A DNA stretch of 50,298 nucleotides, taken from the sequence record NC_041873.1, one strand, 5' to 3'. The stretch comes from Escherichia phage JMPW2. The position numbers and the translations under genes are program-made. The notes under the pieces are model-generated. The model ran no database searches. It saw only the letters and a program-made list of their open reading frames with translations, and was not told where the DNA came from. Positions 1,530-39,972 of the stretch are shown in pieces. Numbering within the stretch: the stretch's first letter is position 1; every line of letters begins with the position of its first letter.

Positions 1530-1760
1530 ATGTCAATCGTCAAGAACCAGCAAGCCATCGATTAAACCAATAACAACCGCTTTGCTATTTTCATCACATC
1601 GATAGGTCGCCGATTTGCAGTCAAAGCCGTTCCGGGTGGATACAAAACCTACATGGAAGATAAAGGAAAGTGGGTGTGGTGCGAAAACCTTGCAAACTTC
1701 CTAGTCTGGAATGCAGACCTCCAGGGCTTTGATGATATCAGCACCTTAATTGAGGAATAA
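1530..1760 (+). pseudogene. hypothetical gene with in-frame TAA at 1563..1565 (codon 12)
   Basis: ATG 1530 has the conserved leader CCAATCAGAGGAAT and the box/stem-loop module upstream; the frame is open for 64 more codons after the TAA to stop 1758..1760, ending 6 nt before the next gene. Confidence 0.4.
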
Positions 1761-2543: not shown

Positions 2544-3032
2544 ATGAAAATCAAATTGCTTTGCACTGGCGGTTACAAGGGCTTTACTCGCGACCTGGAA
2601 GCGGATCCTATCGTGATTGATGCGGTGAAGTGTGATGATAGCCTCGGCGGCTACCGCGTGAAGGTTGACGACCTGGTGAAAGCTGGCGTGTACGATCTGG
2701 GCTATGGACTTTCGGTTAGCCCGGTAGTTGGTCCGGCAGACTTCAACGAGAAGGATGGAACGATGTTCTTCTTCGAATGGGAAGTCCAGGCAAATCCTAA
2801 GCCGCGCAAGGTTCGTCTTCTCAGTAATGGCGGCTACCCGATGCGTCCAGGTTATGAGAATCGCACATTCCCGGTTATCGTTGACTTTGAAGAAATCACC
2901 GCACACTTAGCTTATATCAACGGTGAACAGCTTCATGCTGTTGGATTCGTGGGATGTATGAATCAAGAGGCGCTATGCTTCTTCCATTGTAAAGCCGAGC
3001 CGTTCGATATTGAGTGCGAGTTAGTATACTAA
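2544..3032 (+). CDS. hypothetical protein
   Basis: Track ORF; module and SD acgagga upstream. Confidence 0.6.
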   Translation: MKIKLLCTGGYKGFTRDLEADPIVIDAVKCDDSLGGYRVKVDDLVKAGVYDLGYGLSVSPVVGPADFNEKDGTMFFFEWEVQANPKPRKVRLLSNGGYPMRPGYENRTFPVIVDFEEITAHLAYINGEQLHAVGFVGCMNQEALCFFHCKAEPFDIECELVY

Positions 3033-3077
3033 GCACGAATTGTTAAAAGGGGATTTGGCCTGACTGGTATAATCCCC
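3030..3077 (+). promoter_or_regulatory. palindromic box plus stem-loop
   Basis: taagcacgaattgttaaaag; hairpin ggggatt...aatcccc with TGgTATAAT. Confidence 0.6.
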
Positions 3078-3103
3078 GCATAAACCACTAAGAGGAAAGC
3101 ATC

Positions 3104-3610
3104 ATGTTAAAATTAGAAGACGTAAAATTCCCGATTAAATTTATCAGCCTAGGTTGCGGTGAAATTACATTCACCAGTGAAGATAAAGGCAAGTGGGACA
3201 ATGATAAAATGTCTCAGCTTAAGTTGGATTGGTTTATCAATCGGCACAATGAAGTAAATCCTGAAAACTCAGCCAAGAAGGATTACCATTACATTATTAG
3301 TGGTAGTCAGGATGCGTACGAAAAGTATGATGGTTGGAAAACTGTTCGATCAATCTTCCACCCCGCAAAGCCAGAAATTAAACCGATGTTACAATGCGCT
3401 CAGATCGAGAACATTCCATTGAGCGCGACGCTAAGAGGAGTGCAGCTTGATGATAAATCCTGGCTTGAAATAACCGCCACGCCGAAAACTATTGAAGTGC
3501 ACGACGATATCGTCACTCTTCTATTGCATTACGGCAGCTTTAAGCACAAAGCGGTATCAGGTGAAATCAGCATTAAGCGCGGAACTCTTGTACGCTACGA
3601 GGTGAAATAA
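3104..3610 (+). CDS. hypothetical protein
   Basis: Track ORF; SD aagagga upstream. Confidence 0.6.
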   Translation: MLKLEDVKFPIKFISLGCGEITFTSEDKGKWDNDKMSQLKLDWFINRHNEVNPENSAKKDYHYIISGSQDAYEKYDGWKTVRSIFHPAKPEIKPMLQCAQIENIPLSATLRGVQLDDKSWLEITATPKTIEVHDDIVTLLLHYGSFKHKAVSGEISIKRGTLVRYEVK

Positions 3611-3759
3611 TGGCTGCATGGGTCTTGATTATCTTGATGAGCACCGGGCCGGATCACGTATACATGGAAAGTCGGCAATCATGCAACGAGGCCAGGGCTG
3701 TAATCGCAGAGAATAAGCCGTTCGGATATGAAGTAAAAACGATGTGCGTTAAACGATAG
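3610..3759 (+). CDS. small membrane protein (49 aa)
   Basis: Hand-translated MAAWVLIILMSTGPDHVYMESRQSCNEARAVIAENKPFGYEVKTMCVKR; TAATG overlap with upstream gene; stop TAG inside box. Confidence 0.4.
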   Translation: MAAWVLIILMSTGPDHVYMESRQSCNEARAVIAENKPFGYEVKTMCVKR

Positions 3760-3817
3760 CATGAATTGCTAAACCTTCCGCGAGGCCATTTGTTATAGTG
3801 GCCTTATTGAAGCGCGG
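3756..3817 (+). promoter_or_regulatory. palindromic box plus stem-loop
   Basis: atagcatgaattgctaaacc; hairpin aggcca...ggcct with TGtTATAGT. Confidence 0.6.
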
Positions 3818-3839
3818 CAACCAATCAGAGGAATCAGCT

Positions 3840-4048
3840 ATGGCTACACGACTCACTCAGTAGCAGATTTACGACAAGGCCTCACGCCTTCGTGAATCAC
3901 TTCGAGGTCTGACACCAAACGACCGCATTGAGATTATCGGGCACGCATTGCACGAACTCGCGTCTCAAGACGTAATCTATCATTCATGCGGAAATAAATT
4001 CTGGAACGTGACATTCGAGGTAAAGAAAGATGAGCAAAACTCATAAGT
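3840..4048 (+). pseudogene. hypothetical gene with in-frame TAG at 3861..3863 (codon 8)
   Basis: ATG 3840 preceded by box, stem-loop and CCAATCAGAGGAAT leader; after the TAG the frame stays open 61 codons with no ATG, ending 18 nt into the next gene. Confidence 0.4.
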
Positions 4049-5376: not shown

Positions 5377-5823
5377 ATGAAACACCTAATCTGTATTGAA
5401 GCGCCTAACGACGAGTACACTCTGCATGGCTTGGGTATGTTCAAAGGTCACTACATTACAGCTAAGATTCAAGATGACAAGCTGGATGATGGCGATCTGG
5501 AAATCACATCGAAAGAGATTAATCCGTACATCATGCAGAATCTTGGCAATAACGAATATATGGCCTACGGCTGCAATGCGGTGTATAAGCACATTAAGAT
5601 CCGCAAGCGCGTCGTGCGTGCATTCAAGAAGATTGCAATGAAGTACTGGAAGATGAGCAAGAAAGATGCCGGACGCTGGGCGCGCAACGTTGCAGATTCA
5701 TACTTCTATCGTAACGGCGAATCCTGCTACTTCCTGATCGATGAACTTATGGAAAACTACGGTGGCGACTTCAGCCAGGGTAGCTTTGATGACTGGGTCA
5801 ACTATGAGATCAGTTGCTGGTAA
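5377..5823 (+). CDS. hypothetical protein
   Basis: Internal ATG of track ORF 5335..5823 with SD acgaggaag; module upstream. Confidence 0.55.
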   Translation: MKHLICIEAPNDEYTLHGLGMFKGHYITAKIQDDKLDDGDLEITSKEINPYIMQNLGNNEYMAYGCNAVYKHIKIRKRVVRAFKKIAMKYWKMSKKDAGRWARNVADSYFYRNGESCYFLIDELMENYGGDFSQGSFDDWVNYEISCW

Positions 5824-5872
5824 TAGCACGAATTGCTAAAACTTGCTCAAGGGAATTTGTTAGAATGCCCTT
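5822..5872 (+). promoter_or_regulatory. palindromic box plus stem-loop
   Basis: aatagcacgaattgctaaaac; hairpin aaggg...ccctt with TGtTAGAAT. Confidence 0.6.
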
Positions 5873-5906
5873 CGTTGAGTTAAGCAACCAATCAGAGGAA
5901 TAAATC

Positions 5907-6437
5907 ATGGATAAAATCACAATTTGGGGCCAGACAATCAACCTGTTTCTCGGCACGCGCCGCGTGGCAATCTTTGACTTTGACGGGACACTTAGCGATG
6001 GATCTGGTCGACTTCACCTGCTGCCGACAAAGGATTTGCACTTGACTGAAAGCTGGTCTGAGTTTAACCGAGCGGCAATATTTGACGATCCTATTCAGAG
6101 CACTATTGAGGTGATGAACTCATTATTTGCTGCGGGTTATCACGTAATTATCTTAACAGGACGTAGTGATGAGGTGCGTCACGAATCAAAGTTATGGTTA
6201 AAGCGCCACGGTGCGCGATATGATTACCTGATTATGAGGCCGCATACCGACAACCGCAAAGACACGGTAATGAAAGAAGAGGCAGTGCGCGCTATCGGCA
6301 TTGATAACATTCTTGCGGCTTGGGATGACTCAGTGAATATAATAAAAAAATTCAGAGATCTAGGGATAACCACATATCAGGTTTGTGAATATGCCTGTGA
6401 TAGTCGAGAGGATTTAAATAGTCATGGTGTCGATTGA
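5907..6437 (+). CDS. HAD-family phosphatase (nucleotidase or polynucleotide 3'-phosphatase-like)
   Basis: HAD motif I FDFDGTL near N-terminus; conserved leader upstream. Confidence 0.6.
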   Translation: MDKITIWGQTINLFLGTRRVAIFDFDGTLSDGSGRLHLLPTKDLHLTESWSEFNRAAIFDDPIQSTIEVMNSLFAAGYHVIILTGRSDEVRHESKLWLKRHGARYDYLIMRPHTDNRKDTVMKEEAVRAIGIDNILAAWDDSVNIIKKFRDLGITTYQVCEYACDSREDLNSHGVD

Positions 6438-38778: not shown

Positions 38779-39191
38779 TTACAGACAAAGGTGATTATTT
38801 AGAATTTTACGAGAGAGATCCAAGCGACACTCGAAAGGAGGACGCTCATCAGGTGGATTGTGTATCCTGGCTGAAATACAATTTTCCTCACCTTCTATTT
38901 TGGCACACTGTCAATGAAGGTGAAAAAACAATCACATCGGCGCTCAGGGATGAGCAGGCCGGATTACTTAAAGGCGTGTCAGACTTCGTTATCCTGATTG
39001 GTGTTAACTCACGATACCCGTTTGCAGCAATCGAACTTAAGCGGGTTAATAAGTCAGGCAAAGGAAAGGCGTCACCAGTCAGCGACAAGCAAAGGGAATT
39101 TCTCCAAAAGGTCCGGGAGCGTGGCGGCTTCTCTGCCGTCGCATACGGATTCGGGCAATTCAAGATCGCAATTTACGAAATGATGAAATAG
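38775..39191 (+). CDS. VRR-NUC domain nuclease
   Basis: VDCVSWL...DFVILIG...AAIELKRV resembles the VRR-NUC fold pattern; ATGA overlap with helicase. Confidence 0.55.
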   Translation: MITDKGDYLEFYERDPSDTRKEDAHQVDCVSWLKYNFPHLLFWHTVNEGEKTITSALRDEQAGLLKGVSDFVILIGVNSRYPFAAIELKRVNKSGKGKASPVSDKQREFLQKVRERGGFSAVAYGFGQFKIAIYEMMK

Positions 39192-39207
39192 CACTTTTTG
39201 TTAAAAC
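39187..39207 (+). promoter_or_regulatory. palindromic box upstream of dam
   Basis: aatagcactttttgttaaaac. Confidence 0.5.
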
Positions 39208-39258
39208 TGCCGGAATGGAATCTGGCATTATTATCTCACCAACACTAGAGGACTAAAA

Positions 39259-39972
39259 ATGAAAGACTTTAATGATATCGAAACTATCGACTTTGCTGAA
39301 ACTGGTTGCTCATTCACTCGCGAAGCAATAGCGTTTGGCGGTTATTATCAGGCACTAAAAACTCCAACATGCAAAGAGATTTCAGGCCGTCGATATAAGG
39401 GAACCAATACGCCGGATGTTGTTCGTGATTTATGGTCAACCCCGCGCGAGGTTATTGCGTACCTTGAGGGGCGTTATGGAAAATACGATCTCGACGCTGC
39501 GGCAAGCGAAGAAAATAAAGTTTGCGAGAAGTTTTATTCTCAGGAAACAAACTGATTAAAACGTTGGTGGGGTAAAAACAAGCATGTATGGTTAAACCCT
39601 CCTTATAGTCGACCTGATATATTCGTCAAGAAGGCGATCGAGCAAATGGAGCACAATAATCAGATTGATATTCTGTTGCCTGCCGATAATTCTACAGCGT
39701 GGTTTACTGAGGCGCGACAGCACGCGGCTGAAATCATCTGGATTGAAGCTGACTTGACTGAGGATATTGACGGCAACGAGTATGCTCGATCCGGACGACT
39801 GGCGTTTATATCCGGTGAAACCGGAAAGGCCGTAGATGGTAATAACAAAGGTTCGGTAATTTTTATCATGCGCGAACTTAAAGATGGTGAGACGCAGCAA
39901 ACTCACTATATCCCAATCACAAGCATTTGCCCTTCGGTGAAAAACAAGCGCGCAAAAGTGAGGAAAGTATGA
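39259..39972 (+). pseudogene. dam: phage Dam-type N6-adenine methyltransferase interrupted by in-frame TGA at 39553..39555
   Basis: Same frame either side of the TGA: upstream LWSTPREVIAYLEGRYGKYDLDAAAS, downstream WLNPPYS (motif IV); track ORFs 39259..39555 and 39646..39972. Confidence 0.7.

Follow-up and report, generated by a model that had tools for sequence, protein, structure and literature searches.

In classical phage nonsense mutants, a one-base change near the beginning of a gene turns a sense codon into UAA, and the start signal and the downstream frame stay intact. The locus described here resembles them in each of these features; it differs from them in that its allele arose spontaneously, is fixed among the isolates sequenced and was not selected on a suppressor host. 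It belongs to Escherichia phage JMPW2, a T1-like phage of the genus Tunavirus, family Drexlerviridae, for which we analyzed one strand of a 50,298-nucleotide stretch of DNA (NC_041873.1), hereafter the window; positions are counted from its first base, and the features of the locus lie on the + strand. The closest described counterpart is Orf75 of phage T1 (CPTT1_003, AAP49925.1/T1p75), a hypothetical early-region protein of 76 aa in the family phrog_11449, and the interrupted frame of JMPW2 is, on sequence comparison, a homologue of this protein.

The frame opens with ATG at 1530-1532 and encodes 11 codons (MSIVKNQQAID) before it reaches an ochre codon, TAA at 1563-1565, in the place of codon 12, so that the translated part of the broken gene spans 1530-1565. 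In the same frame, 64 sense codons follow up to TAA at 1758-1760. This undecayed and untranslated remnant of the Orf75-family frame (1566-1760) comprises codons 13 to 76 and the original stop, and only 6 nt separate it from the ATG at 1767 of the next gene, a 75-aa homologue of T1 Orf74 (1767-1994). The latter has its own Shine-Dalgarno (SD) sequence, AUUGAGGAA, with a pairing energy of -6.2 kcal/mol, located inside the end of the broken gene. A first-pass annotation made from the letters of the sequence had already placed the start at ATG 1530, the TAA at codon 12, 64 open codons behind it and a gap of 6 nt, and each of these coordinates proved exact.

We compared this frame with T1 Orf75 by tblastn and observed 89% protein identity over all 76 codons (residues 1 to 76); therefore, the open frame past the TAA is not due to chance. 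A homology search of the downstream frame, as the first-pass annotation had proposed, likewise led to the T1 Orf75 family along its full length. The match to phrog_11449 had an E value of 2.6e-51, and the C-terminal part matched profile positions 42 to 76 with an E value of 6.8e-21. As in T1, the gene lies between a left-arm gene and the Orf74 homologue, and the 83 nt upstream of it, which hold a repeated box, a hairpin and a leader, are identical to those of T1. The succession of box and hairpin, gene, and Orf74 homologue was the same in T1, ISF002, ISF001, Chapo, SH6, LeonhardEuler, pSf-2, SH2, ADB-2 and SA32RD. In contrast to T1, where codon 12 is TCA and the gene is uninterrupted, JMPW2 has TAA at this codon; the two also differ at codons 24 to 28, which are of the SIGRR type in JMPW2, as in JMPW1 and ISF002, and of the RDNKR type in T1. 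Because the uninterrupted frame of 76 to 87 codons found in the family is missing, the JMPW2 locus represents a disrupted allele and not an intact member.

The normal state of the gene is a full-length protein. Among 14 intact alleles, dN/dS was 0.12 overall, 0.20 for codons 1 to 41 and 0.055 for codons 42 to 76, the latter two values indicating purifying selection on both halves, and an alignment of 34 sequences shows 14 invariant positions in the N-terminal half. When 5.8 billion proteins were searched, 45 clusters at 90% identity were recovered, nearly all of exactly 76 aa, and the distant members recovered by a profile search of 1.84 billion representatives were 77 to 87 aa long and aligned over their full length. 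No stand-alone C-terminal gene was present among the 45 clusters or the distant members of the profile search. The first-pass annotation had named an alternative arrangement, a conserved short leader peptide followed by a separate small gene starting at ATG 1653; this is not what the homologues exhibit, since they are full-length proteins of 76 to 87 aa and Met42, the residue encoded by ATG 1653, is replaced by K, R, I or A elsewhere in the family. A short upstream ORF exists in the TAA lineage only.

Database and structure searches gave few clues about what the protein does. The Pfam search returned no match for the Orf75 family, the PHROGs search returned unknown-function families only, and the profile search of 1.84 billion representatives retrieved just 16 relatives, which were small phage-type proteins and two repeat proteins, none of them annotated. 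The AF2 model (pLDDT of 75.8) predicts an N-terminal helix, a four-stranded beta-meander, a short helix and a last strand. According to this model, the ochre stop would leave the first helix only, and Met42 would lie within strand 3 of the meander. In a Foldseek search of the model against the PDB, no match was better than an E value of 0.3; the top matches, Hfq/Sm proteins with a TM score of about 0.34, were treated as noise. We also observed that residues 52 to 76 (1683-1757), which read NLANFLVWNxxxQGFDDI[ST]xLI(E/x), are under the strongest constraint in the family and are kept in distant homologues, and that the same residues have the lowest confidence of the AF2 model (pLDDT of 61 to 65). 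A constrained C terminus of low predicted confidence is a pattern typical of a partner-binding tail, a putative role in this case. Separately, one distant homologue of 131 aa (P0062) apparently consists of an Orf75-like N-terminal part fused to a part resembling the product of a 63-aa ORF at 2281-2472 of the window; by eye, and unaligned, P0062 and that ORF have the motif DDxGDxxFxDxxxDCF in common. This apparent fusion hints that small early proteins of the Orf75-like and the 2281-2472 types may act together.

The interruption itself can be ascribed to a single substitution, C>A at 1564, which separates the TAA of JMPW2 from the TCA (Ser) of the closest intact alleles. We compared codon 12 among roughly 20 intact alleles, which came from isolates as well as UViGs. 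It was TCA in T1, ISF002, ISF001, Chapo, SH6, LeonhardEuler, Shfl1, pSf-2, SH2, ADB-2, S2_02 and several UViGs, and GCA (Ala) in SA32RD. In distant homologues the residue was A, E, R or Q, and codon 12 was a sense codon in every intact homologue examined. TAA at this codon was found in five genomes, namely JMPW2, JMPW1, IME167, phi2013 and Henu5_2. The ORF at 1530-1760 of JMPW2 is nucleotide-identical to that of IME167, phi2013 and Henu5_2, and JMPW1 differs from it by 1 nt, a synonymous change at 1556, on the 5' side of the stop; the nearest intact allele, that of ISF002, is set apart by 4 of the 231 nt. A 68-nt query across codon 12 was run against 50,697 phage records and detected no other carrier, and a search of metagenomes with the pattern CAAGCMATCGATTMAACC returned 82 contigs, only one of which (L081) holds a true homologue, with an intact TCA, the others being chance matches. 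S2_02 was considered as a possible sixth carrier and rejected: no CDS is annotated there, but the frame is intact and the record is sparsely annotated.

Two further bases accompany the TAA. The synonymous 1631T was found in carriers only, and a derived C>A substitution at 1664 (Asn45Lys) is present in all of them. Since the TAA and the linked bases 1631T and 1664A are common to the carriers, the TAA allele, as read from these alignments, is of single origin and inherited by descent. Lys45 is also found in one intact allele (P0010), which weakened the idea that N45K is a compensatory change tied to the stop. The carriers differ among themselves by only 0 to 1 nt, and the derived changes past the stop amount to one synonymous change and one at the near-invariant Asn45, numbers that give no statistical power on relaxed selection.

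The allele has also changed its surroundings. JMPW2 matches T1 at every base from 1400 to 1563, and its sequence from 1527 onward is that of the JMPW1 type, save for one base private to JMPW1 and one other; therefore, a crossover took place within 1527-1563, just 5' of the stop. As a result, the TAA allele is found behind two different left arms, a T1-type Orf76 homologue in JMPW2 and, in the JMPW1 type, an unrelated gene of 157 aa, indicating that it was propagated through recombination in viable phage.

The signals ahead of the frame are those of a working gene. The box, the stem-loop and the leader that had been noted upstream of ATG 1530 in the first-pass annotation are all there, at 1450-1467, 1474-1497 and 1512-1525, respectively. 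The leader, CCAATCAGAGGAAT, is an exact copy and holds the SD sequence GAGGA (1519-1523), whose anti-SD pairing of -6.0 kcal/mol is comparable to that of neighboring genes. With GAGGA placed 6 nt before it, ATG 1530 is, by sequence criteria, well signaled for translation. Further exact copies of the leader are located at 3821 and 5888, and with up to 2 mismatches 6 matches were found in the window against 0.36 expected. We discarded the leader as a marker of interrupted genes: it is unlinked to the stops, because the gene behind its third exact copy (5888) is intact and encodes 176 aa. That gene (5907-6437) has a DxDGT motif near its N terminus, which may be that of a HAD-type phosphatase.

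The box, AGCACTTTTTGTTAAAAC, is also exact, and its start overlaps the stop codon of the preceding gene (ORF 1125-1451). It is present in 11 copies in the window (up to 3 mismatches), with 0.02 expected, and is kept upstream of the homologous gene in relatives. The inverted repeat behind it has 6-bp arms, GGGGTA (1474-1479) and TACCCC (1492-1497), around a 12-nt loop with the extended -10-like sequence TGcTATAGT. Copies of the box elsewhere are arranged alike but have other arm sequences (2497/2513, 3049/3072 and 3783/3799). A consensus sigma-70 promoter scan did not call the box and hairpin, because the spacer from TTGTTA to TATAGT is 22 nt, and it called none of the other box copies in the window; the promoter role of the box at 1450-1467 is therefore best described as putative. 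Box copies with a hairpin were noted at 1447-1530, 2468-2544, 3030-3104, 3755-3840, 5822-5907 and 39187-39259, among others. Each copy, AGCAC(N3-5)TTG(T/C)TAAAA, begins at or in the stop codon of the gene before it, and the hairpin loop or 3' arm that follows contains a -10-like hexamer (TATAGT, TATAAT, TAGAAT or TATTAT), often after TG. The hairpin arms vary among copies yet remain complementary (GGGGTA/TACCCC, GGGGTT/AACCCC, GGGGAT/ATCCCC and AGGCCA/TGGCCT), and these compensating differences suggest selection for the stem.

Beyond the TAA at 1563-1565, the first in-frame ATG, GTG or TTG is ATG 1653, which opens a 35-aa ORF (1653-1760) from the internal Met42. GenBank lists this ORF as JMPW2_003 (ALT58125.1) and as JMPW1_004, and the databases place it in a family of its own, phrog_30837. 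The annotators of JMPW1 and Henu5_2 called the 35-aa ORF only, and no gene was annotated in this region of IME167 and phi2013. The 35 positions of phrog_30837 match only the C-terminal remnant ORF, and the remnant corresponds to profile positions 42 to 76 of phrog_11449. Thus, the DNA of the JMPW1_004/JMPW2_003 entry is the same as that of the remnant; the database holds it as a gene family in its own right, whereas our comparison identifies it as the C-terminal part of a 76-aa gene. On these profile matches, phrog_30837 appears to be a database artifact that stems from truncated annotations, JMPW1_004 and JMPW2_003 among them. As for expression, the 35-aa ORF is preceded by an SD-like GGGUGGA 12 nt upstream and is a possible but weakly signaled restart product.

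Could the base call itself be wrong? Homopolymer indels are the typical errors of Ion Torrent sequencing. JMPW2 was sequenced once on this platform, and the record has two more stops that are absent from the relatives compared, points that would agree with an error; against this, the change at 1564 is a substitution and not a homopolymer indel, and it was read at a coverage of about 1,900x (PMC4919409). The identical base is found in JMPW1, IME167, phi2013 and Henu5_2, all separately deposited, and in all carriers the TAA is linked to the same two derived bases. Because the base recurs in five genomes together with these linked changes, a consensus error in the JMPW2 record is excluded for TAA 1563, contrary to the sequencing-error alternative raised in the first-pass annotation; that the true codon is TCA and the stop arose in sequencing or assembly is, in our estimate, scarcely conceivable. 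JMPW1 and JMPW2 come from one laboratory, where they were isolated from contaminated samples (PMC4919409), and the independence of the five carrier genomes is thus partial; T1-like phages are described as spreading between laboratories as contaminants (PMC13164509). The five carriers hence confirm the base call but may sample one laboratory-associated lineage. The same circumstances lend some appeal to the idea of an adaptive knockout, in which loss of Orf75 would be positively selected on laboratory K-12 and B strains, the protein being costly or its target absent. Hosts are on record for four carriers, all of them laboratory strains (JM109, BL21(DE3), DH5alpha and BW25113), two carriers stem from contaminated experiments, and the allele survived recombination into a new left arm. 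Nevertheless, the intact gene has been kept in T1, LeonhardEuler, SH2 and FCWL1, which were also isolated on K-12 or B strains, and one origin followed by hitchhiking fits the pattern equally well, so that we regard adaptive loss as unlikely.

Two other readings would let the sequence past the stop be expressed. In one of them, the gene would be functionally split: ribosomes re-initiating, or initiating independently, at ATG 1653 or GTG 1674 would make the C-terminal module as a micro-protein of 35 or 28 aa, respectively. Within the family, constraint is strongest on the C-terminal 35 codons (dN/dS of 0.055), the motif FQGFDDI[ST]xLI is kept even in distant homologues and GenBank annotators called the 35-aa ORF, but the homologues lack any stand-alone C-terminal gene and do not conserve Met42. 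ATG 1653 is separated from the stop by 87 nt, a long distance for re-initiation, and its SD-like GGGUGGA is imperfect and 12 nt away; moreover, Met42 falls in the middle of a beta-strand in the model, and a fragment starting there would be without three of the sheet strands. The substitution 1664 C>A strengthens an SD-like AAAGGA about 6 nt before the in-frame GTG 1674 from -3.5 to -5.6 kcal/mol, a value resembling those of real SD sequences of JMPW2, although Lys45 also occurs in one intact allele. Taken together, these observations make a functional split quite improbable. A narrower form of it, in which 1664 C>A made AAAGGA a usable ribosome-binding site for GTG 1674, perhaps together with ATG 1653, and the resulting FQGFDDI[ST]xLI micro-protein of 28 to 35 aa keeps a putative host-binding function without the beta-sheet body, strikes us as very improbable. 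In the other reading, programmed or host-assisted read-through of the UAA would yield a functional full-length protein from the intact frame after the stop. The stop is followed by A, a context in which termination is not at its strongest, and two carriers were propagated on JM109 and DH5alpha, which carry supE44; however, supE44 reads UAG and not UAA, and other carriers were grown on BL21(DE3) and BW25113, which to our knowledge carry no suppressor. No tRNA was found in the JMPW2 window by ARAGORN, and the RNA fold of 1492-1700 revealed no unusual, potentially stimulatory structure, the region being less structured than shuffled controls (z = +1.41). The stop is also absent from all other homologues and is thus not a conserved recoding site, and we consider read-through extremely improbable.

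Two other stops interrupt genes of JMPW2, both on the + strand. In a 68-aa gene of the phrog_18601 family (3840-4046), TAG at 3861-3863 results from TGG>TAG at 3862 (Trp8 to amber), and the three relatives compared, JMPW1, phi2013 and LeonhardEuler, all have TGG. In the dam methyltransferase gene (39259-39972), TGA at 39553-39555 results from TGC>TGA at 39555 (Cys99 to opal), upstream of the NPPY motif. It is the sole difference from IME167 in 717 nt, and IME167, JMPW1 and Sfin-3, the three relatives compared, all have TGC. The amber stop and the dam stop are best regarded as candidate lesions in the JMPW2 record. A supE44 host inserts Gln at UAG. The GenBank record of JMPW1 lists JM109 as host, and the same is assumed for JMPW2; on this likely host the amber codon, if real, could be phenotypically silent. 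When all JMPW1 ORFs of at least 60 aa were compared with the window by tblastn, no interrupted annotated gene appeared besides these two cases; a second methylase stops trivially earlier, 5 aa short, and the remaining matches were noncoding frames. As an aside, the JMPW1 genome measures 49,840 bp in its announcement (PMC4919409) and 49,628 bp in the current KU194206.1, in which several protein accessions are at version 2, and this record was evidently revised after publication.

The suggestion of the first-pass annotation that the three stops are independent nonsense lesions and not the work of one recoding mechanism is supported by this comparison. Each stop results from a different single substitution, and their distributions differ, the TAA being present in five genomes and the TAG and TGA in no relative compared; these differences fit three independent events. 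The lack of a tRNA in the window and of unusual RNA structure downstream of the TAA gives recoding no support.

We therefore consider it very likely that the locus is an early accessory gene of the T1 Orf75 family that carries one inherited C>A ochre lesion, has lost its full-length protein and is dispensable on laboratory hosts. Under this loss-of-function explanation, a single C>A transversion at 1564, which arose once, converted Ser12 (TCA) into the ochre TAA. The allele would then have been inherited by the JMPW1-type lineage (JMPW1, IME167, phi2013 and Henu5_2) and would have entered JMPW2 with the JMPW1-type segment to the right of the junction at 1527-1563. Ribosomes loaded through the intact SD sequence and ATG 1530 would end after 11 codons, and the full-length Orf75 protein is presumably absent from the carriers; we know of no UAA suppressor in the hosts listed for them. 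Re-initiation after early nonsense codons is known from the restarts of T4 rIIB and lacI. In JMPW2, however, re-initiation at ATG 1653 or GTG 1674 would give at most a trace of a C-terminal fragment, and the start signals suggest little or no restart past the stop. The Orf74 homologue at 1767 would start from its own SD sequence. With 42 C and 45 G, the gap of about 200 nt that would be left untranslated is not rich in C, and strong Rho polarity would therefore not be expected. The perfect look of the remnant frame probably reflects a lesion so recent that decay has yet to set in.

Every carrier is a viable phage propagated on laboratory E. coli, suggesting that the gene is dispensable on those hosts, and this dispensability would account for the persistence of the allele. 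In kind, the lesion is ordinary, recent and inherited, and not novel. Its recognition bears on how T1-like genomes are read. Nothing in the three in-frame stops of JMPW2 suggests a recoding system, and a possible false lead is thereby removed; likewise, the 35-aa "gene" JMPW2_003/JMPW1_004 and phrog_30837 are annotation artifacts of a broken 76-aa gene. For the family itself, the carriers suggest that growth on laboratory E. coli does not require a T1 Orf75-family protein, and the TAA lineage offers a natural knockout with which the role of Orf75 may be found, for example, on wild or defense-carrying hosts.
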